A program made the translations under genes and the position numbers. The notes beneath the pieces were generated by a model, which worked only from the letters and a program-made list of their open reading frames with translations, was not told where the DNA came from and did no database searches. From IMG/VR virus record IMGVR_UViG_2619619125_000002: 13,796 nucleotides of DNA, one strand, 5' to 3'. Origin of the DNA: a virus (taxonomy: Duplodnaviria > Heunggongvirae > Uroviricota > Caudoviricetes). This document shows, in pieces, positions 1-12,265 of this stretch (the first letter of the stretch is position 1; every line of letters begins with the position of its first letter).

Positions 1-576
1 CTACGGCAGTGCTGGCCATTCAATATCCTGTGCAGTTGACGTATCAACACGGTTCAGCAATACCCGATACTTTTTCCATGCTTCCAGCAACGAGATTTCT
101 TCCTCCGTTGCAATTTCCAGATCTGCAGCATCCTGAAGCGGCGCAATATGCTCACTGGCTACCTGCATCAGGCTGTTTTTTGTTTCTTCCGCCTCCCGGA
201 TCCGGAACAGTTTTTCTGCTTCCGTATCCTTCACCCAGGCTGTGCCGTTCCACTTCTGATATTCCCCTCCCGGCGATAACCAGGTAACATTTTCCGGTAA
301 CGGACCGAGTTCAGAAATAAATAACGCGTCGCCGGAAGCCACGTCATAGACGGTTTTTCCCCGATGATCTTCAACGAGATGCCACGATGCCTCATCACTG
401 TTGAAAACAGCCACGAAGCCTGCCGGAATATCTGGCGGTGCAATATCGGTACTGTTTGCTGGCAGACCTGTATGAGGCGGAATATATGCGTCACCTTCAC
501 CAATAAATTCATTAGTTCCGGCCAGCAGATTATAAATTTTTATGGTCCGTGGTTGTTCACTCATTCTGAATGCCAT
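1..576 (-). CDS. Tail fiber assembly protein (Tfa family), 191 aa
   Basis: ORF translation [28 protein letters not shown]... matches the Tfa proteins of E. coli prophages (TfaR/TfaQ/TfaE) as remembered; ATG at 574-576, stop TAG at 3-1 exactly at the window edge. Confidence 0.85.
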
Positions 577-2871: not shown

Positions 2872-3336
2872 TTACTTTAAACACTGCTCGGTTATGTATT
2901 GCTGAGCACCTTCAAGTTGGGCCTGCATCATTACCAGTCGTTCCCGGAGGGTGAAATAATCCCGTTCAGCGGTGTCTGCCAGTCGGGGGGAGGCTGCATT
3001 ATCCACGCCGGAGGCGGTGGTGGCTTCACGCACTGACTGACAGACTGCTTTGATGTGCAACCGACGACGACCAGCGGCAACATCATCACGCAGAACATCA
3101 TTTTCAGCTTTCGCATCAGCTAACTCCTTCGTGTATTTTGCATCGAGCGCAGCAACATCACGCTGACGCATCTGCATGTCAGTAATTGCCGCGTTCGCCA
3201 GCTTCAGTTCTCTGGCATTTTTGTCGCGCTGTTCTTTGTAGGCGATGGCGTTATCACGGTAATGATTAACACCCCATGACAGGCAGACGACGATGCAGAT
3301 AACCAGAGCGGAGATAATCGCGGTTACTCTGTTCAT
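2872..3336 (-). CDS. Rz i-spanin (inner-membrane spanin subunit)
   Basis: Translation [21 protein letters not shown]... with N-terminal TM and coiled-coil-like body; start ATG overlaps the R stop (ATGA); contains the embedded Rz1 frame, as in lambda/P21 Rz. Confidence 0.85.
2931..3116 (-). CDS. Rz1 o-spanin lipoprotein, embedded in the +1 frame of Rz
   Basis: Translation [24 protein letters not shown]... has a lipobox (VVGC) and a PPPPP proline-rich body typical of Rz1; lies wholly inside Rz. Confidence 0.8.
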
Positions 3337-3830
3337 TGCTGACCCCACAAACAGATTTCACGCTCAATCTCACGACGAGTCATGAGACCTTTCCATTGCT
3401 TACCGCCAGCATATGTCCAGCGACGTAGCTGATCACATGCGCCTTTGATATCGCCCTGGTTTATTTTGCGAAGAAGCGTCGATGTTCTGAAATTGCCAGC
3501 ACCCACGTTGTAAACGAATGAGTAAAGAGCGCCGCGCGTTGTTTCCGGTATATCGACTTTGATGTACGGGTTAATTTGTCTGGCGACCGTGGCAAGGTCT
3601 TTATTCAAGAGTGTTTTGCATTCTGCTTTGGTATACGTTTTACCGAGCATGATGTCTTTTCCTGTATGCCCGTGACATACAGTCCATACACCAACAATAT
3701 CTTTGTATGGTATGTAGCTGACACCTTCCAGACCATCGTTACCACTTGGGCCAGTGATTAACACTGATGCTATAGCAATTGCTCCGCCACCAATAGCAGC
3801 AGCAACGACTTTTCGTAATGATGGAGGCAT
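3333..3830 (-). CDS. Phage lysozyme R, SAR-type endolysin (P21 R / RrrD-like), 165 aa
   Basis: Translation [27 protein letters not shown]... has a Gly/Ala-rich N-terminal signal-anchor-release segment and a lysozyme body matching the DLP12 RrrD / phage 21 R as remembered; start overlaps the S stop (ATGA). Confidence 0.9.
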
Positions 3831-4045
3831 TATTCACCTCTCGCAGCCTTGCGCTTATCTTCTTTAATCTTGAAATAAAGGTTTGTCAGGTACGTCAGCA
3901 GGCCAAATACCAGACTACCCAGCACACCGATTGCAGCCCACTGTGACGGAGTTACTCTATCGAGCAACTGTAAAAACCAGTAGCCAGCACTGCCTGCGGA
4001 GGTGCCGTAGGCAATGCCTGTTGAAATTTTGTCCATGGATTTCAT
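3830..4045 (-). CDS. Holin S, phage-21-type pinholin, 71 aa, with dual-start motif MKSM
   Basis: Translation [71 protein letters not shown]; ATG at 4043-4045 and a second ATG at 4034-4036 (Met1/Met4); strong SD GGAGGTG upstream. Confidence 0.85.
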
Positions 4046-4145
4046 AGCCTCACCTCCGCACGGAACGGATGGCATAGTTATTATGTGTAGGCTTTCAGAC
4101 ACATCAATCAGAGCCTTAATTGATATATATGCTGGAGACGATGCA

Positions 4146-4171
4146 ATATAAAAAGCTCGCCGTAGCGAGCT
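4146..4171 (-). terminator. Rho-independent terminator-like hairpin downstream of the second lipoprotein gene
   Basis: Perfect 7-bp stem agctcgc/gcgagct with a 4-nt loop, followed on the - strand by UUUUAUAU. Confidence 0.4.
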
Positions 4172-4296
4172 AATAAAATGTATTTCTCTGATATTATGTT
4201 TATTTGTATTAGCTCAGACTTGACATCACAGGTTTCGTATATAGAACATCATCAAATCTGTCAGTTTGCTATGAATGAGATATAGTAATTGAAGAG

Positions 4297-4692
4297 CTAA
4301 CCTCGCATGTCAAAGCCAGATTTCTGAAAATCTCTGTAGACTTCCGGATTGTTGAAGGCCGGAAATTTGGCTTTATGAGCTGCGGACTTTATCGCTTCGC
4401 AATAGGCTTTATCACCGTTACTGGTAGATATTTTTAACGCCGTGCCATCCTGAGAGAATTCCATATGCAACCTGCATTTTTTCCCTTTCCAGTTATGCGG
4501 CTCATCAAGTTTGGCATTAATTGCAGCTCTGATTCCCCGCGCTTGCGCCCCCCATTCATCCTGATCATCCCAGCGTCCTGAACTGCAACTACCTGTAGCA
4601 GTAGTTTTGTGGCAATCTGAAGGGTGTAAAGGTGTGCATCCCGCAACAAAACCGACCCAAAAAGTCAACATAACGATTTTCTTTAATCCCAC
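4297..4692 (-). CDS. Lipoprotein with divergent TolA C-terminal (domain III)-like fold, 131 aa, probable GTG start
   Basis: N-terminus MGLKKIVMLTFWVGFVAGC is a lipoprotein signal peptide (lipobox VAGC); GTG start at 4690-4692 preceded by AGGAG with an 8-nt spacer; C-terminal region (KKCRLHMEF...YCEAIKSAA...NPEVYRDFQ) parallels the paralog at 4843-5271. Confidence 0.65.
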   Translation of the reverse strand: MGLKKIVMLTFWVGFVAGCTPLHPSDCHKTTATGSCSSGRWDDQDEWGAQARGIRAAINAKLDEPHNWKGKKCRLHMEFSQDGTALKISTSNGDKAYCEAIKSAAHKAKFPAFNNPEVYRDFQKSGFDMRG

Positions 4693-4842
4693 TTCTTGCT
4701 CCTCAATCCATTAAAATCTCAGCAATAGTAGTTGTTACGTCCGCCACTGGCTCAGAGCTGACTATCCGCTAAATTTAGCTCAGTGCCGTAGCTGTGTCAG
4801 AACAAACCTAAGCCGAAACCGTTTATTACAAAACAATAAATA

Positions 4843-5271
4843 TCAGGGTTTAAAATCCAGCACCCCATTTTGAAATACTTTATATACTTCCGGCGAAGGG
4901 GGGGCAGGTATATCAGCATTCTTTATCGCATTCATCGCTTCACGACATAAATCGAGGTCTCCACTTTCTCTTTTAACCTCCAGTAGAAGGCCATTCGGGG
5001 CCATATGCATTCTCAGTGTACACTCTTTTCCTGAATACTTACTCGCATCCCCGAACTGTTTTTCGATGGCGCTCTTGATTTGATGGGCATACAGACGGAT
5101 ATCCTCACTAACATCAGAAGTACGTTCAGATGAACTCACATACTGTGTCTCTATTGCTTTATCGGAGTAATATGATGTACGGTCATGATAATTTGTCGAT
5201 ACAGCATCAGTGCACCCGATAATAATCCCACTAATAATCAACGTAAGAATTGATGCGCTACGAAAACCCAT
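4843..5271 (-). CDS. Lipoprotein with TolA C-terminal domain (TolA-III) homology, 142 aa
   Basis: Signal peptide with lipobox (IIGC); C-terminal 85 aa (YAHQIKSAIEKQFGDASKYSGKECTLRMHMAPNGLLLEVKRESGDLDLCREAMNAIKNADIPAPPSPEVYKVFQNGVLDFKP) aligns with the C-terminus of E. coli TolA as I remember it (YAGQIKSAIESKFYDASSYAGKTCTLRIKLAPDGMLLDIKPEGGDPALCQAALAAAKLAKIPKPPSQAVYEVFKNAPLDFKP); ATG at 5269-5271 with a GAGGA SD. Confidence 0.8.
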   Translation of the reverse strand: MGFRSASILTLIISGIIIGCTDAVSTNYHDRTSYYSDKAIETQYVSSSERTSDVSEDIRLYAHQIKSAIEKQFGDASKYSGKECTLRMHMAPNGLLLEVKRESGDLDLCREAMNAIKNADIPAPPSPEVYKVFQNGVLDFKP

Positions 5272-5300
5272 TTTTCCTCACATATGTCATATAGTAAAGG

Positions 5301-5330
5301 ATTATATATACCGTTGTTTTGGACGCTCAA
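5301..5330 (-). promoter_or_regulatory. Candidate sigma70 promoter for the TolA-domain lipoprotein gene (-35 TTGAGC, 18-bp spacer, -10 TATAAT)
   Basis: On the - strand, TATAAT (complement of 5301-5306) and TTGAGC (complement of 5325-5330) about 30 nt upstream of the ATG at 5271. Confidence 0.35.
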
Positions 5331-5860
5331 ACAGCGAATCAGATCAAATAAAACGCACATTTGTTAACATTTACACAAAGTCTGCGTGGGATATTCTGAA
5401 AGAATATCCATAATGTGGAGAGAATCTATTGAAGTGCATGGTGCCGGGTGCCTTCCGGTGAACAAAATGTTCGTGATACCTGTCGGCGACAGAAAAGGTT
5501 AATGGTATCACCCCACCGCACAGGGGGATTCACCATGCAGGAGTTTTCTTAGCAAACTCACTGCGCGCCCGGCAACTCCCAACCACATAAAATGCGGAGT
5601 TTGTGGTATTTATGCATATAACTCGCAGGAATTATCTTAAAAAACTGATGTCGATCCGGATTAAAAAGAAGCAGGTCATCATCAGATGACTGGAAAAAAG
5701 GAAAAAAAAAATACTCATCATACAGTTTTGATTGCAGGGATGAGCCTGCTATGCACAATATGCAGAATATAAGCAAGATAAAAATATGCAGGCATATTAT
5801 TTCGGATTTTGTTATTAACACAACCTTTTTAATAATCATTTGGCATACAATAAACCAGTC

Positions 5861-5887
5861 CAAAAAGAACCGCCTAAACAGGCGGTT
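5861..5887 (-). terminator. Terminator-like hairpin in the late leader region (aaccgcc / ggcggtt stem followed by a U-run on the - strand)
   Basis: 7-bp perfect stem with a 6-nt loop; - strand reads ...ggcggtt cuuuuugg. Confidence 0.35.
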
Positions 5888-6141
5888 GGTCAATACAAAG
5901 GATGCTTCGTCTTTATTATAGTAATCTGAGGCGTCGGGTGTCTTGTATCAGACAACATATTGTCCCGCTAAACAGCGAATTACAAACCACCCTGCAATGA
6001 TCTCTCATCTCATTTTATATGAGTTGACGACATCAGGATAACGCATCATCAGCCCCTGCCAAGAAATATCAAAACTCCCGCCAGCAATGTGTTATCACAA
6101 TATTGTAAAAAAAACACAGCACCGAAACTATAACTGGTCTC

Positions 6142-6150
6142 TGTTATAAT
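6142..6150 (+). promoter_or_regulatory. Extended -10 element TGtTATAAT on the + strand, flanked by a 9-bp inverted repeat (6132-6140 / 6162-6170)
   Basis: tgttataat at 6142-6150; aactggtct and agaccagtt flank it symmetrically; no good -35. Could drive a short + strand RNA ending at the 6205-6237 terminator, or be an operator or late-promoter-associated element. Confidence 0.25.
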
Positions 6151-6204
6151 TTGGAGCAGAAAGACCAGTTGCCCAACTAGCAGCATTCTCCCCTGCTTTC
6201 CTGA

Positions 6205-6237
6205 CGTAAAAAAACCGCATTAAGCGGTTTTTTTACG
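6205..6237. terminator. Bidirectional rho-independent terminator (14-bp perfect inverted repeat cgtaaaaaaaccgc / gcggtttttttacg), candidate tR' downstream of Q
   Basis: Perfect 14-bp palindromic arms with a 5-nt loop (attaa); GC core flanked by A7/T7 runs so it reads as hairpin plus U-run in both orientations; lies about 80-110 nt downstream of the Q stop. Confidence 0.6.
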
Positions 6238-6314
6238 ATGTCCATGTCTGCAATCCGCCTCGCGATACAGCTGTGCGAAGCATAGCAAAATTGAAGCAGT
6301 TTATACGTAAGAAA

Positions 6315-6857
6315 TCAAGCCATTTTCTCAGCAAATGATTCACGCATGGGAATATATAGGGCATACTCAGCAACAGCTAACCAATTAGCAATCCGTTTTT
6401 CGCATGTGCTAAAACACCACTCTGGGTGTCCATCATTTAGCAATTCAGCCATTTTGCGCTTAGTCATCCCCCGCCCTTCATAGCGTTGCCGGAGAATGCA
6501 AATCAATCCTGGATGCTCTGCCAGCACCTCACTTATGACTCGATCAATACATAACGCCTCTGCATCAGTACAATGCGCCAGCCAGCTCTTTTGCTTGCCG
6601 TTGATCATCTCTCGCAAAAACGCTTCCAGCTCAGCTTTCTCTATTCCCGCTTTTTTCATTCTACGCAGGGCTTCATTAATGGCTGTTTTCGTCAGTTTTT
6701 TGGATGCCAACAACTGATTGAACATATTCCCTGACCTGCCACCGCCAATATACGACCAGCGCCCCCACATACGTAGTTTTCCCTGAATCCAGACACTTTC
6801 CAGCGTGGTGAGGCGAAGGTGTTCTCCGCTTTTTCCTGTATTCGTTGGGTAAATCAT
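6315..6857 (-). CDS. Putative late-gene antitermination protein Q, 180 aa
   Basis: Sits immediately upstream of the late leader/terminator and the S-R-Rz cassette; contains an RMWGRW motif resembling the ERWGAW motif I recall in the DLP12 Q-like protein QuuD; Cys-containing C-terminal half; start overlaps the YbcO-like stop (ATGA). Confidence 0.6.
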   Translation of the reverse strand: MIYPTNTGKSGEHLRLTTLESVWIQGKLRMWGRWSYIGGGRSGNMFNQLLASKKLTKTAINEALRRMKKAGIEKAELEAFLREMINGKQKSWLAHCTDAEALCIDRVISEVLAEHPGLICILRQRYEGRGMTKRKMAELLNDGHPEWCFSTCEKRIANWLAVAEYALYIPMRESFAEKMA

Positions 6858-7144
6858 AAATGACCTTTCTTTCTCCAGATTTCTTGTGTGCGAAAAACCC
6901 CTTCAGCATGCATCAGGCGCAATTCTTCTTTGGTGTAATCGCTGGTTTTTACCCGCCCGTCGATTAGATCGTGGCATGAGCTACAGGCTATCGCCGCCTG
7001 CATATCGTGTGGTTTTGTCGCTGTTCCGCACGTCCCCGCCAGCCTGTAATGCGCCAGCACAGAGGTTTCGGGATTGTGATTGCAGTAGCCAGGGATTCTG
7101 ATCTGGCACATCTGGCCTTTAGCCGCTTTACGTAAATTCACCAT
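6854..7144 (-). CDS. YbcO-like (DUF1364) putative zinc-binding nuclease, 96 aa
   Basis: Size, Cys/His pattern (CxxxxxC ... CxxC ... CSSCHDLIDGR) and position just upstream of Q match the DLP12 ybcO / nin-region genes as remembered. Confidence 0.7.
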   Translation of the reverse strand: MVNLRKAAKGQMCQIRIPGYCNHNPETSVLAHYRLAGTCGTATKPHDMQAAIACSSCHDLIDGRVKTSDYTKEELRLMHAEGVFRTQEIWRKKGHL

Positions 7145-7743
7145 TACGCAAACTCCAGTAGTTGTGCGGCCACATTTTCAACTTCCTCCTGAGAGGAGAA
7201 TTTACGAAACAGAATCCAGTTCCACAGCACATTCAGTACAGATTTATAAACCTGCTGAAACTCGACTTCGTCCATATTCGCAAAAGCGATGGATTTTGCC
7301 CGACGCCCACGGCTACCGTCCGGATAAATATGCTCGGTGTAAAATCCGGCCTGAATGGTTACCCACTCGCGGAAAGCCTCAAACGACTTTAGCAACGCCG
7401 TATCCCGGGTTCTACGAGTCGCAACGGTGTTAAGGTATTGCTCTGCGGCATCACTCAGGGCTGGCGTGTGTTCCCGACCAACTGATTCGCACAGGTAATC
7501 AACGAAACCAGACAGCAGTTCTCGTTCGCGAGGCGTGATCGCCCCACCGACCGGAGTCCAGTAATCGAATCCCAGTTGCAGGAGTTTGAAAAAACGCTTG
7601 TGGAATGCGTAGTTACGCACACGCTTAAAGTCTGCGTGTATCCACTCACCTATTTTGATTTGATGCAGAAAATCGCAACTCTCCGGCGTCGCCGGGAGAA
7701 GTAAACCAGAAGAAGTTTGTTTGACCAGTTGTATATGCGCCAT
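7144..7743 (-). CDS. DUF1367-family phage protein (nin-region), 199 aa
   Basis: ATG at 7741-7743; stop overlaps the ybcO-like start (TAATG); position upstream of ybcO/Q typical of lambdoid nin-region genes; family assignment from memory. Confidence 0.6.
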   Translation of the reverse strand: MAHIQLVKQTSSGLLLPATPESCDFLHQIKIGEWIHADFKRVRNYAFHKRFFKLLQLGFDYWTPVGGAITPRERELLSGFVDYLCESVGREHTPALSDAAEQYLNTVATRRTRDTALLKSFEAFREWVTIQAGFYTEHIYPDGSRGRRAKSIAFANMDEVEFQQVYKSVLNVLWNWILFRKFSSQEEVENVAAQLLEFA

Positions 7744-7801
7744 TTCTCAATCTCTCGATGGCGCAGCGCAGCAGATGCCAGTTGTTCAGGCTGACGAATA
7801 A

Positions 7802-7829
7802 AGTATAAATAAACTGGCTATGGTGTAAA
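7802..7829 (-). promoter_or_regulatory. Candidate sigma70 promoter for the DUF1367-ybcO-Q operon (-35 TTTACA, 16-bp spacer, -10 TATACT)
   Basis: On the - strand about 60 nt upstream of the DUF1367 ATG, at the boundary with the AT-rich island. Confidence 0.3.
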
Positions 7830-8023
7830 GCCCCACATAGCATGAACAAACACTACATATCAAATAGCTGGTACAAGGATAGAAATACGACATTTATTAT
7901 TAAAAACGATTAGATAAATTACATTTTAATGTTATGCAAAAGTTCTTTTTTATCATAACATTTCAATAAAAGCATTACAGATGCAATCATCCCGTCATCA
8001 TCAATTATTTAAGGTGGTTAAAC

Positions 8024-8110
8024 ATGGAAAATAACAAGTTCGCACATCTCGCTCCTTTTTTATCCGTAATCCTTTTCGCTTGTTGTTTTATATGGGCATT
8101 ATTTTTATAA
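8024..8110 (+). CDS. Small hydrophobic ORF, 28 aa (MENNKFAHLAPFLSVILFACCFIWALFL), candidate small membrane protein
   Basis: ATG at 8024 preceded by the strong SD AAGGTGG with a 6-nt spacer; single predicted TM helix; lies in AT-rich DNA with no other ORF. Confidence 0.3.
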   Translation: MENNKFAHLAPFLSVILFACCFIWALFL

Positions 8111-8204
8111 AGTAGCCACATGATAAGTTGCTGGAATCATATTTCCCACTCAAGTCATTAACATTTGATAAGATATATCTAAAAGGACGCCTTTACATTA
8201 TTTA

Positions 8205-8231
8205 TGTGTATATAATTTATTTATATACACA
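8205..8231. repeat. Perfect 10-bp inverted repeat tgtgtatata (7-nt spacer) tatatacaca, candidate protein-binding site
   Basis: Read directly from the sequence; the left arm/spacer junction contains TATAAT (8211-8216). Confidence 0.3.
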
Positions 8232-8556
8232 GTAAAGGTATCCTGGGAAAATATTTATCGTTAAAAAATACATCATAAATAATTAAGCTGAAATTTCAGA
8301 ACACAACTAATACACACAATAAGGTTCAGTAACAATAATCTATGTGGACTACATCGAGATTTTTTGATTAAACTTTAATAACTTATTCCTAACACACAGA
8401 ATGCATAAACTAAAAGTAAAACAAATAGTTATACGAAAAACAACCATATTTATTATATCTTCTCCTCTAATCAACATATCAATTATGTGTTTCATAACAG
8501 CTTGACATAACCCTCAAAAACACGCATTTATAATGCATGTTTTTGATGAGGTGGTT

Positions 8557-8895
8557 ATGACACACAAGAGAATTCCTAAAGATTGGGTAATCAAACGCTC
8601 AACTCCGTTCTTCACAAAAGAGAACGTACCTTCAGCGTTATTAACACATCATAATACAGCAGCAGGTGTTTTTGGGCAGTTGTGCGTAATGGAAGGCACT
8701 GTAACATATTATGGTTTTACTGATGAGAATGCTACTGAACCGGAGATAAAAGTAGTCATTAATGCTGGCGCTTTTGCAACAAGCCCACCACAATACTGGC
8801 ACCGTGTTGAACTAAGCGATGATGCTCAGTTTAATATTAACTTTTGGGTCGCTCCAGACTTCTCGGGCGAAAAAGTCTATAGCACCAAAAAATAG
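8557..8895 (+). CDS. DUF1971-family protein (YeaR / TehB-N-terminal-domain-like), 112 aa
   Basis: Translation MTHKRIPKDWVIKRSTPFFTKE...VMEGTVTYYGFTDENATEPE...AGAFATSPPQYWH...FNINFWVAPD parallels E. coli YeaR as remembered (RSTPFW...VMHGAVKYLGYADEHSAEPD...AGQFAVFPPEKWH...FNIDFFVAPE); SD GAGGTGG before the ATG at 8557; own terminator downstream. Confidence 0.7.
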   Translation: MTHKRIPKDWVIKRSTPFFTKENVPSALLTHHNTAAGVFGQLCVMEGTVTYYGFTDENATEPEIKVVINAGAFATSPPQYWHRVELSDDAQFNINFWVAPDFSGEKVYSTKK

Positions 8896-8961: not shown

Positions 8962-9618
8962 GTAAATATATTGGTTCTACATTGACAGGAGACTTCAACC
9001 ATAAGAAGTAATCTGAATACTTGAGCAATAAATTTACTTAAGATTAATGAGCGCACCTTGCCGGACAAAGATAAACCAAGGTAACACCTTTTTTCTAGCC
9101 AGTATGTAATCAATCAGAAAGCCGCTCCATAAGAACAACAGCAAGACAATAAATTGCCATTACAGCCGCAATAGCTAGCGCACATTTGAGAACCAGCACG
9201 ACAACCTCCTGTATTGGACGTACACCAGTTCTGATAAATATGAGGCTGTCTCATCATTGATTCAATATAACTATTGGGTATAGTTTCTGTGATTTTGTTC
9301 TGTAGAAATGGAACACAACAACCAGTCACCACCAGCACTTCTTTAAATACGCCAAGTCCGACGCAAGCTAACCTTCTAGTCCGCTTTGAGCGAGGAGCGG
9401 ACCAAACCCGGCCAACTGACTCTTAAAGGGGCCGCAGGAATTTTTCGTCTGAACTTTCGAAGCTCCTCTCCCTGAAGACAGAAAACTTCTGTGTGCTGTG
9501 GGAATATTGAATCTTTGCCTTAGATATAAATAATTTTATCCCGCCTGAAGTTTACATTATTTTATTTATCTGTTTTTCTAAATCAGACTGCACTCCTTAC
9601 TTAAATCAGGAGCCAGTC

Positions 9619-11010
9619 ATGCCATTTGTTATTTATGTGTTTACTATCAGTGCCTTTGCGCTCGGACTCGCGGAATTTGTCCCCATTGGGCTGACAGACG
9701 TTATGGCTCAGGGGTTGTGTGTGGGTGTGGAGCAGACCGGGGCAGCGGTTACAACCTATGCACTGGGGGCAACGTTCGCGGCACCCGTACTGTCTGCGCT
9801 GACAGCAAGCTGGAGCCGGAAAAATGTAATGCTTACAACTGCCGTTGTGTTTACTGCCGGTAGTCTGGCGGCCGCGTTTGCAGCCACATTACCTCAGCTC
9901 CTGTTAGCGCGGTTCATTGCTGGTCTGGGACACGGCCTGTTTCTGGCTGCGGCATCCAGTACCGCAGCTCGTCTTGCTGGACCGGGTAACTGCCCTGACT
10001 GTGGTGCGGTGATGGGCGACGCAACATACCAGGAAACATTCGATGAAGAGAGTCAGGTTGAAGCTAAGGAAAATGATCCGGAGGAAATGGAAGGCGCTGA
10101 ACATCCGCACAATGAGAATGCTGGCAGCGATCCGCATCGCGATTGCAGTGATGAAACTGGCGAAGTCGCAGATCCCGTAATCGTAGAAGACATAGAGCCA
10201 GGTATTTATTACGGAATTTCGAATGAGAATTACCACGCGGGTCCCGGTATCAGTAAGTCTCAGCTCGATGACATTGCTGATACTCCGGCACTATATTTGT
10301 GGCGTAAAAATGCCCCCGTGGACACCACAAAGACAAAAACGCTCGATTTAGGAACTGCTTTCCACTGCCGGGTACTTGAACCGGAAGAATTCAGTAACCG
10401 CTTTATCGTAGCACCTGAATTTAACCGCCGTACAAACGCCGGAAAAGAAGAAGAGAAAGCGTTTCTGATGGAATGCGCAAGCACAGGAAAAACGGTTATC
10501 ACTGCGGAAGAAGGCCGGAAAATTGAACTCATGTATCAAAGCGTTATGGCTTTGCCGCTGGGGCAATGGCTTGTTGAAAGCGCCGGACACGCTGAATCAT
10601 CAATTTACTGGGAAGATCCTGAAACAGGAATTTTGTGTCGGTGCCGTCCGGACAAAATTATCCCTGAATTTCACTGGATCATGGACGTGAAAACTACGGC
10701 GGATATTCAACGATTCAAAACCGCTTATTACGACTACCGCTATCACGTTCAGGATGCGTTCTACAGTGACGGTTATGAAGCACAGTTTGGAGTGCAGCCA
10801 ACTTTCGTTTTTCTGGTTGCCAGCACAACTATTGAATGCGGACGTTATCCGGTTGAAATTTTCATGATGGGCGAAGAAGCAAAACTGGCAGGTCAACAGG
10901 AATATCACCGCAATCTGCGAACCCTGTCTGACTGCCTGAATACCGATGAATGGCCAGCTATTAAGACATTATCACTGCCCCGCTGGGCTAAGGAATATGC
11001 AAATGACTAA
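9619..11010 (+). CDS. recE: Truncated exonuclease VIII (RecE C-terminal catalytic domain) fused in-frame to a foreign N-terminal segment of about 120 aa resembling the first TM helices of an MFS transporter
   Basis: C-terminal ~300 aa (...[17 protein letters not shown]... ending [11 protein letters not shown]) is the RecE nuclease domain with a PD-(D/E)xK-like D-x-K motif and overlaps the recT start by 8 nt; N-terminal 1 to ~120 ([25 protein letters not shown]...[18 protein letters not shown]) is hydrophobic and MFS-like; real ATG with AGGAG SD at 9608-9612. Confidence 0.8.
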
Positions 11011-11868: not shown

Positions 11869-12063
11869 ATGAGATATGACAATGTTAAACCATGTCCATT
11901 TTGTGGTTGTCCATCAGTAACGGTGAAAGCCATTTCAGGATATTACCGAGCGAAGTGTAACGGATGCGAATCCCGAACCGGTTATGGTGGAAGTGAAAAA
12001 GAAGCACTCGAAAGATGGAATAAACGAACCACTGGAAATAATAATGGAGGTGTTCATGTATAA
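11869..12063 (+). CDS. ralR: RalR, Rac prophage restriction-alleviation protein / type I toxin (DNase), 64 aa
   Basis: Translation MRYDNVKPCPFCGCPSVTVKAISGYYRAKCNGCESRTGYGGSEKEALERWNKRTTGNNNGGVHV matches remembered RalR; stop overlaps the ydaC start. Confidence 0.9.
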   Translation: MRYDNVKPCPFCGCPSVTVKAISGYYRAKCNGCESRTGYGGSEKEALERWNKRTTGNNNGGVHV

Positions 12064-12265
12064 AATTACCGCCACTATTGAAAAGGAAGGTGGCACTCCT
12101 ACTAACTGGACAAGATATTCAAAATCTAAACTAACGAAATCAGAATGCGAAAAAATGCTCTCAGGTAAAAAAGAAGCAGGCGTTTCCAGAGAGCAGAAAG
12201 TAAAACTGATAAATTTTAATTGCGAGAAACTTCAGTCCTCGAGAATTGCATTGTATTCAAATTAA
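12056..12265 (+). CDS. ydaC: YdaC, Rac prophage small protein, 69 aa
   Basis: Translation MYKITATIEKEGGTPTNWTRYSKSKLTKSECEKMLSGKKEAGVSREQKVKLINFNCEKLQSSRIALYSN; SD GGAGG upstream of the ATG at 12056. Confidence 0.85.
   Translation: MYKITATIEKEGGTPTNWTRYSKSKLTKSECEKMLSGKKEAGVSREQKVKLINFNCEKLQSSRIALYSN

Follow-up and report, generated by a model that had tools for sequence, protein, structure and literature searches.

Prophage genes for predicted lipoproteins with the fold of TolA domain III: candidate decoys for TolA-dependent import

A pair of small genes in a lambdoid prophage of Escherichia coli encodes two predicted lipoproteins, each ending in a domain that has the fold of domain III of the host protein TolA (TolA-III). 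The two open reading frames, ORF-A and ORF-B, lie next to each other on the minus strand of a 13,796-nucleotide stretch, the IMG/VR virus record IMGVR_UViG_2619619125_000002 (Caudoviricetes); this whole stretch is referred to below as the window. Judged from their sequences, they make up a two-gene moron whose products could act as outer-membrane-tethered decoys, or competitors, for TolA-dependent import. This is the reading we favour, tentatively and at slightly under even confidence.

Two small proteins ending in TolA domain III

The original prediction held that ORF-A follows the C-terminus of TolA closely, down to the terminal LDFKP, and it named a profile search and a structure prediction as the ways to check this. 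Both came out clearly for the two proteins. The Pfam family TolA_C (PF06519), with a gathering score of 25 bits, matches ORF-A at 82.6 bits (E 2.4e-23, residues 49-140) and ORF-B at 54.6 bits (E 1.3e-14, residues 44-125), both far above the threshold. When compared with the solved E. coli TolA-III chains, residues 55-142 of ORF-A align to TolA 334-421 without a gap (E 5e-28), with 52 of the 88 positions identical (59%) and VLDFKP at the end where TolA has PLDFKP; ORF-B also finds these chains (E 5e-9), with identity at 27 of 82 positions (33%). The AlphaFold2 models reach a predicted local distance difference test score (pLDDT) of about 90 or higher in both domains, and above 90 across that of ORF-B. 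As placed by Foldseek, the ORF-A model superposes on the TolA-III chain 2x9a_B with a template modelling (TM) score of 0.94 and a root-mean-square deviation (rmsd) of 0.6 Å, and the ORF-B model on 3qdp and 2x9a_B with TM scores of 0.90-0.91, an rmsd of 1.1-1.2 Å and 31% identity. Set beside E. coli TolA-III (1S62, 3QDP, 1TOL, 2X9A), the two domains thus have the same fold of three helices on a three-stranded sheet, within 0.6-1.2 Å, and the same two disulfide cysteines, which are invariant in the alignment. They are 29% identical to each other.

It should be stressed that neither protein is TolA itself. The two lack both a transmembrane anchor and the helical domain II, are not coupled to TolQR, and are encoded outside the tol-pal operon. 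They are 142 and 131 amino acids long, prophage-borne, and made up of a predicted cleavable lipoprotein signal and 20-35 disordered or linker residues besides the domain. The TolA model NF007065, with a cutoff of 213 bits, gives 107.8 bits for ORF-A and 53.7 for ORF-B and is covered only at its positions 293-386. A second model, TIGR02794 (cutoff 59.45), is passed by ORF-A at 75.6 bits through the C-terminal domain only, and is failed by ORF-B at 47.2 bits.

TolA-III is a docking site for several ligands, and their contacts can be followed in the two proteins. TolB, the N1 domain of the filamentous phage protein g3p (g3p-N1) and colicin N bind it by adding a strand to beta3, and none of the three interactions survives the substitutions D418P and K420P in TolA (PMC4339652). 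The site of colicin A is on the other edge, at L375-P380, with K368, K379 and K396 taking part (PMC3365938). In ORF-A, beta3 reads VLDFKP and is identical to TolA at 6 of 8 positions, the equivalents of D418 and K420 among those kept; most of its colicin A site is preserved as well, reading LLEVKR, and the positions of K368, K379 and K396 hold H, K and K. The beta3 strand of ORF-B, GFDMRG, is identical at 1 of 8 positions, with the Asp kept and the Lys replaced by Arg. By these residues, ORF-A would be the better candidate of the two for direct mimicry of TolA.

Signal peptides, start codons and linkers

Both proteins had been predicted to open with a lipoprotein signal peptide, and each agrees with a pattern that we derived from the PROSITE rule for lipoproteins. 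ORF-A, which has a Shine-Dalgarno sequence (GAGG) at 5279-5276, shows R4, a hydrophobic core and the lipobox cysteine Cys20. For ORF-B the rule is satisfied from a GTG start, which gives K4K5 and Cys19. The automatic annotation (PGAP/RefSeq) starts this gene late, at the ATG at 4671, by which the charged Lys-Lys N-terminus is lost and the lipoprotein rule fails. We take the GTG at 4692 to be the real start, since it is preceded at a distance of 6 nucleotides by the Shine-Dalgarno sequence GAGGAG (4704-4699), since an ATG or GTG occupies the corresponding place in each of four further replicons (from pO157, an IncI-like plasmid, Enterobacter and Serratia), and since the lipoprotein pattern appears only from there. 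ORF-A is labelled by RefSeq/PGAP as an incomplete gene, a 'tolA pseudogene, missing N-terminus'; the label is an artefact of the comparison with full-length TolA. The RefSeq annotation is in need of correction on both counts.

In both proteins the residue that follows the lipobox cysteine is Thr and not Asp, and for this reason sorting to the outer membrane by the Lol system is predicted; the lipobox and this residue are the grounds on which we regard both proteins as probably lipidated and located in that membrane. In both AlphaFold2 models the region ahead of the domain is disordered; in ORF-A this covers residues 1-52. The linker of ORF-B (residues 20-48; 4548-4635, minus strand) is as conserved as the domain itself. 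This segment ahead of the domain is acidic and rich in Trp, and it carries a Cys-x8-Cys motif, whose Cys pair recurs in distant relatives, and the sequence SSGRWDDQDEWG. We considered SSGRWDDQDEWG as a colicin-like TolB box and set the idea aside: the likeness is vague, and the motif DG[ST]GW is not matched.

A two-gene cassette between antiterminator and holin

The window comes from an E. coli other than K-12, where it forms a degenerate lambdoid prophage, Rac-like, at the ttcA/intR site; the genome NZ_CM129856 contains the identical stretch between ompN-uspF and intR-ttcA. Along the minus strand the genes run from a NinB-like DUF1367 gene, the YbcO nuclease and the DUF1133/Phage_antitermQ gene, through ORF-A and ORF-B, to the holin, the lysozyme, Rz/Rz1 and trkG. 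About 1 kb of largely non-coding DNA separates the Q gene from ORF-A, and the holin that follows the pair is of the phage-21 (P21) type. The pair had been assigned to the Q-to-holin interval in which lambdoid phages carry cargo, and it does lie there, between the Q antiterminator and the P21-type holin. The assignment is further borne out by a variant of ORF-A with 66% identity, which is found without a companion in other lambdoid prophages (6566-7429 of the stretches examined). Two tRNA genes precede it there and nanS-p, DUF1378, DUF826 and the holin follow, which is the position of stx in Stx phages. Other cargo fills the same slot in other prophages. The GC content of the cassette is given as 39-42% or, more widely, 39-46%, against 46-51% in its neighbours, and both of its genes are intact although the prophage of the window is defective.

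ORF-A had also been credited with promoter-like and terminator-like signals of its own, and here only the first part stood. The promoter-like site at 5330-5301 (Table 1) is the joint best consensus match in 3800-6900. The 150-nucleotide spacer between ORF-A and ORF-B, in turn, holds no terminator-like hairpin, either by scan or by folding (z -0.42); the only strong intrinsic terminator of the region is the hairpin at 4171-4154, beyond ORF-B. These signals suggest a single unit of promoter, ORF-A, ORF-B and terminator, in other words a two-gene moron. Farther upstream, at 5856-5944 on the minus strand, there is a possible pR'/tR' pair of the DUF1133-type Q, consisting of a promoter-like AAGACA-18-TATAAT at 5944-5915 and a strong terminator (5887-5868) within about 30 nucleotides downstream of it. 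Such a pair would put the cassette in the late transcript.

The stretch directly upstream of the ORF-A promoter-like site contains a match to the Rfam family STnc100 (RF02076, 82 bits; 5382-5568, minus strand). STnc100 also precedes ORF-A in phage mEp460 (5444-5634 of the stretch examined) and the nanS-p esterase gene in a prophage of EDL933 (37039-37211 of the stretch examined). Standing ahead of differing cargo, it seems to be a conserved feature of the region between Q and the holin, placed just before the cargo genes.

Table 1. Features of the two-gene cassette and its flanks in the window
Feature	Position	Strand	Basis
Antiterminator-Q gene (DUF1133/Phage_antitermQ), upstream of the ORF pair	6315-6857	-	
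Sigma-70 promoter-like site upstream of ORF-A (TTGAGC, 18 nucleotides, TATAAT)	5301-5330	-	10/12 consensus matches
ORF-A, predicted 142-residue lipoprotein with C-terminal TolA domain III (stop codon included)	4843-5271	-	intact reading frame, PF06519
ORF-A predicted signal peptide and lipobox, residues 1-20 (IIGC20, +2 Thr)	5212-5271	-	PROSITE PS51257-type pattern
ORF-A TolA-III domain, residues 55-142 (end VLDFKP)	4846-5109	-	alignment and Foldseek
ORF-B, predicted 131-residue lipoprotein with divergent TolA domain III, GTG start (stop codon included)	4297-4692	-	intact reading frame, PF06519
ORF-B predicted signal peptide and lipobox, residues 1-19 (VAGC19, +2 Thr)	4636-4692	-	lipoprotein pattern
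ORF-B TolA-III fold, residues 41-130 (end GFDMRG)	4303-4572	-	AlphaFold2 and Foldseek
Intrinsic terminator after ORF-B, just upstream of the holin gene (AGCUCGC-UACG-GCGAGCU and U tract)	4144-4171	-	

Distribution of the pair and of the two lineages

The 1.5-kb region that holds the pair is present in 771 of 5,426 complete E. coli genomes (14%) at an identity of at least 99% over at least 80% of its length, and in more than 120 viral contigs of IMG/VR; the exact sequence of ORF-A occurs on at least 1000 contigs. Among 50,697 phage records there is a single carrier, the isolated temperate phage mEp460_ev081, in which the pair again lies between Q and the holin. In a set of 80 IMG/VR contigs the two genes are always together where the sequence allows this to be seen, and they are accompanied by two unrelated types of Q, two types of lysin, and always the same holin. 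The ORF-A lineage does not extend beyond Escherichia and Shigella, where its variants are 91, 74 and 66% identical; measured against the 66% variant, the ORF-A domain has a ratio of nonsynonymous to synonymous substitution (dN/dS) of 0.24. A published gene, 'EDL933_2012 (TolA)' in CP-933O, induced 32-fold by ciprofloxacin (PMC11125564), was looked at as a lead and was not used, since a 49-kb EDL933 stretch with two prophage Q-to-S regions contains no TolA-like gene.

ORF-B had been described as a divergent tandem copy of its neighbour. With 29% identity between the two, it belongs instead to a separate and wide lineage, with 368 clusters at 90% identity that include Citrobacter, Enterobacter, Serratia, Klebsiella and Raoultella, and with members in 33 species-representative genomes in a scan with this single protein. 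Outside Escherichia (in Enterobacter, Serratia, Klebsiella, Pantoea and Rouxiella, among others) the homologue stands by itself on the chromosome, among neighbours that are unrelated and include no lambdoid genes. In Serratia marcescens it adjoins genes of the GmrSD type (PF03235) and with HEPN domains (6957-8736 of the stretch examined), a locus which is likely a defence islet. Homologues are also carried by about 600 plasmids of E. coli and Shigella. The pO157-type plasmid NZ_CP038350 has an orthologue with 88% identity downstream of psiB-psiA-hok (4815-5246 of the stretch examined), and an IncI-like conjugative plasmid has a homologue right after the relaxase gene (8965-9396 of the stretch examined). 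Conservation in this lineage extends from about 40 nucleotides before the start codon to the stop codon, and with dN/dS values of 0.06-0.12, at synonymous divergences (dS) of 0.5-1.1, the lineage is strongly constrained (dN/dS about 0.1).

The family to which both genes belong is larger still. An exhaustive phmmer search with ORF-B gave 130 clusters at 50% identity, 70 of which are 100-170 amino acids long; a lipobox is present in 45 of these 70, and none of the 45 has Asp at +2. In a consensus built from 49 short lipoprotein relatives the ending is EVYQVFKNAPLDFKP, which is nearly TolA's own. About 660 Klebsiella plasmids have a TolA-like match. The ColE1-type cloacin plasmid CP043367 of Klebsiella pneumoniae encodes a 123-residue TolA-III lipoprotein with the lipobox LLLTAC and LDFRP at the end. 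An ATGA is shared between its gene and that of a 121-residue protein with a Sec signal and a TonB_C domain, so that the two overlap, and both are near the cloacin operon (3687-4420 of the stretch examined). It is possible that they form a paired decoy for the two import systems. On an IncI-like Klebsiella plasmid, another TolA-III lipoprotein gene follows a gene for a thioredoxin-fold protein.

What the lipoproteins may do

Under the decoy reading, the two products would undergo export and lipidation and be carried by Lol to the outer membrane. Anchored at its inner face, each would expose a free TolA domain III by way of a flexible linker some 20-35 residues long. Having no connection to the TolQR motor, such domains should compete with the real TolA for ligands that dock on it by strand addition: TolB with its N-terminus, group A colicins and related bacteriocins with their translocation domains, and g3p-N1. 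Capture at the outer membrane would uncouple these ligands from energised import, and the lysogen would become tolerant to Tol-dependent bacteriocins and filamentous phages. Ligand binding and tolerance are what we infer for ORF-A and ORF-B, and laboratory constructs offer a precedent of sorts. In 1993, Levengood-Freyermuth et al. reportedly found that a C-terminal domain of TolA exported to the periplasm made wild-type cells tolerant to colicins, and leaky. The reverse arrangement has been made as well: periplasmic g3p-N1, which occupies TolA-III, lowers the sensitivity to colicin A and brings phage uptake down by 4 logs (PMC10424213).

What leads us to favour an import decoy is largely the company that these genes keep. 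ORF-B homologues stand alone on chromosomes among unrelated neighbours, which speaks for a function independent of the phage; the cloacin plasmid joins a TolA-like and a TonB-like gene; a defence-type neighbour is found in Serratia; and homologues are carried by conjugative plasmids. Pilus-specific filamentous phages, which depend on TolA, infect the hosts of such plasmids and are drawn to their pili.

A number of points weigh against such a decoy. The affinity between TolA and TolB is weak, about 40 uM (PMC4339652), so that a decoy would need a high local concentration, and free TolA-III should also disturb Tol-Pal, which could come at a cost to the lysogen. In ORF-B the positions of the colicin A contact lysines hold E, S and H, and with these lysines and most of beta3 replaced, its ligand may be a different or a narrower one; its conserved Cys-rich linker, too, suggests a function beyond that of a simple tether. 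Nor is the similarity of ORF-A to TolA clearly focused on the ligand surfaces, with 6 of 8 positions identical in beta3, 12 of 19 in alpha1 and 7 of 15 in alpha2; among the 49 short relatives beta3 is conserved, but not beyond the structural core. The promoter at 5330-5301 is a consensus match only, and the sequence upstream is not conserved in the 66% variant of ORF-A. A search with PADLOC gave no match for either protein at E up to 1. Finally, a cassette in the late transcript beside the lysis genes fits a lytic role equally well.

Such a lytic role would work through Tol-Pal itself. Free TolA-III would titrate the N-terminus of TolB, so that TolA could no longer pull TolB off Pal; the looser link between outer membrane and cell wall would speed or complete lysis, or raise the release of vesicles and cargo. 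The late promoter under Q control would be the main source of transcription, shared with the genes for holin, endolysin and spanins, and any colicin tolerance would be a side effect. A cassette that is carried in the late transcript and always linked to a holin could well serve lysis by disabling Tol-Pal: the pair lies immediately upstream of the P21-type holin gene and downstream of Q and the pR'-like promoter and terminator, the holin stays the same across the 80 IMG/VR contigs while the Q and lysin types vary, and ORF-A keeps the strand that binds TolB. Blocking the TolA-TolB contact is, moreover, enough to produce a full tol phenotype with leakage (PMC4339652). We nevertheless regard a modulator that serves the phage as unlikely. 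Lambdoid lysis requires no such factor, homologues of ORF-B are conserved as lone genes with no lysis genes nearby, both genes are intact in the defective prophage of the window and identical across hundreds of genomes, and the promoter-like site and terminator bracket the pair in the manner of morons expressed in the lysogen.

In another reading, these are envelope lipoproteins that reuse the C-terminal fold of TolA and TonB for some other partner (an outer-membrane protein, a TonB-box-like strand, the peptidoglycan machinery or a host factor), with a benefit that has nothing to do with Tol-dependent import, for instance in stress, serum or bile resistance or in colonisation. The ORF-B lineage is the main case for this reading: at just 33% identity to TolA-III, ORF-B no longer has the known contact residues, the highly conserved Cys-x8-Cys and acidic, Trp-rich segment ahead of its domain is an extra, its orthologue sits on the pO157 virulence plasmid, and C-terminal domains of TonB, whose partners include many different strands, have this fold too. 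The reading sits poorly with the 59% identity of ORF-A to TolA-III, docking strand included, with the almost TolA-like ending of the consensus of the 49 short relatives, and with the association of relatives with a cloacin operon, and on balance we hold it to be rather unlikely. That the genes are non-functional debris of a captured tolA gene, as the RefSeq annotation of ORF-A as an incomplete tolA might be taken to mean, is very improbable, and we rejected it: the frames are intact, with start codons, Shine-Dalgarno sites, signal peptides and lipoboxes of their own, both genes are under purifying selection, the region is kept in the 771 complete genomes and more than 120 viral contigs mentioned above, and both domains give confident folded models.

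The decoy reading can be extended beyond the prophage. Mobile elements of Enterobacterales, by which we mean lambdoid prophages, IncF and IncI plasmids including pO157, bacteriocin plasmids and small chromosomal islets, may be spreading what could be called transducer-tip decoys: lipid-anchored C-terminal domains of TolA, sometimes with secreted C-terminal domains of TonB, that would confer a broad immunity at the import step. We put this forward as a possible but doubtful generalisation. If true, it would add immunity to Tol- and Ton-dependent bacteriocins and filamentous phages as a layer distinct from receptor loss, cognate immunity and intracellular defence, and part of the high colicin insensitivity found naturally in wild E. 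coli would be due to it.

Relation to known systems

The original prediction did not recognise the pair as a described system, and we have come to the same view. Both proteins fall in PHROG 5772, 'unknown function', and PADLOC, as said, was empty. Pfam gave no match for either besides TolA and TonB, and the viral fold library BFVD none below E 0.001. The domain itself is already recognised by automatic names such as 'cell envelope integrity TolA C-terminal domain-containing protein' and 'tolA family protein'. In the full-text literature we found no functional study, only annotations in passing (PMC6854850, PMC10269471) and work on the Tol system in general.

The closest likeness in mechanism is with periplasmic TolA-III or g3p-N1 as made in the laboratory, where likewise a piece of the TolA-ligand pair competes against the entry of Tol-dependent colicins or phages. 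Those constructs are engineered and overproduced, while here we have the product of a natural gene of a mobile element, predicted to be lipid-anchored and known from sequence. In kind, ORF-A and ORF-B resemble Cor of the phi80, N15 and mEp phages, Llp of T5 and TraT of F, which are also small lipoproteins of mobile elements, predicted to be at the outer membrane and presumed to protect the carrier against phages, colicins or DNA from outside. Pfam, PHROG and PADLOC give no relation in sequence or fold between these and our two proteins. Cor and Llp block the receptor FhuA; the mechanism proposed here would instead be mimicry of a periplasmic hub that invaders must reach.

With stx, nanS-p and other morons carried as cargo between Q and S, the cassette shares the slot, the lower GC content and the flanking promoter-like and terminator-like sites. 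It differs in its product, and the benefit is presumed to lie in bacterial competition and not in virulence. The TolA-III lipoproteins of plasmids (Klebsiella cloacin, IncI-like, pO157) have the same architecture of lipobox, linker and TolA_C domain; the versions on Klebsiella plasmids are about 38-39% identical to ORF-A and have a TonB_C or thioredoxin-fold protein as partner, not a second TolA-like gene. An outer-membrane lipoprotein of a mobile element, presumed to be protective, would then be of a known kind, and what would be new is the mimicry, a mechanism not described for natural genes.

Should the decoy reading be true, about one in seven sequenced E. coli, along with pO157, would carry an unrecognised, broad-spectrum tolerance to group A colicins and filamentous phages, a point of relevance to the long-known insensitivity of most natural isolates to several colicins. 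This would matter as well for colicins, klebicins and plasmid-dependent phages that are planned as antimicrobials. The pair would be a natural case of defence through mimicry of the host's own import hub, and it would provide natural dominant-negative probes for research on Tol-Pal. If the proteins weaken Tol-Pal at lysis instead, they would represent a new class of lysis accessory factor.

Other features of the window

Some further observations concern the rest of the window. A 463-residue reading frame at 9619-11010 (plus strand) fuses, in frame, an N-terminal fragment of an MFS transporter with the nuclease portion from the C-terminus of RecE; as both are partial genes in RefSeq, the fusion is probably a deletion junction inside the Rac remnant. 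The RalA antitoxin small RNA (225 bits) lies opposite ralR at 12062-12240 (minus strand), and a match to the Rfam family IS009 falls inside the tail-fibre assembly gene at 35-233 (minus strand). The o-spanin lipoprotein Rz1 is embedded in Rz, at 2931-3116 on the minus strand.

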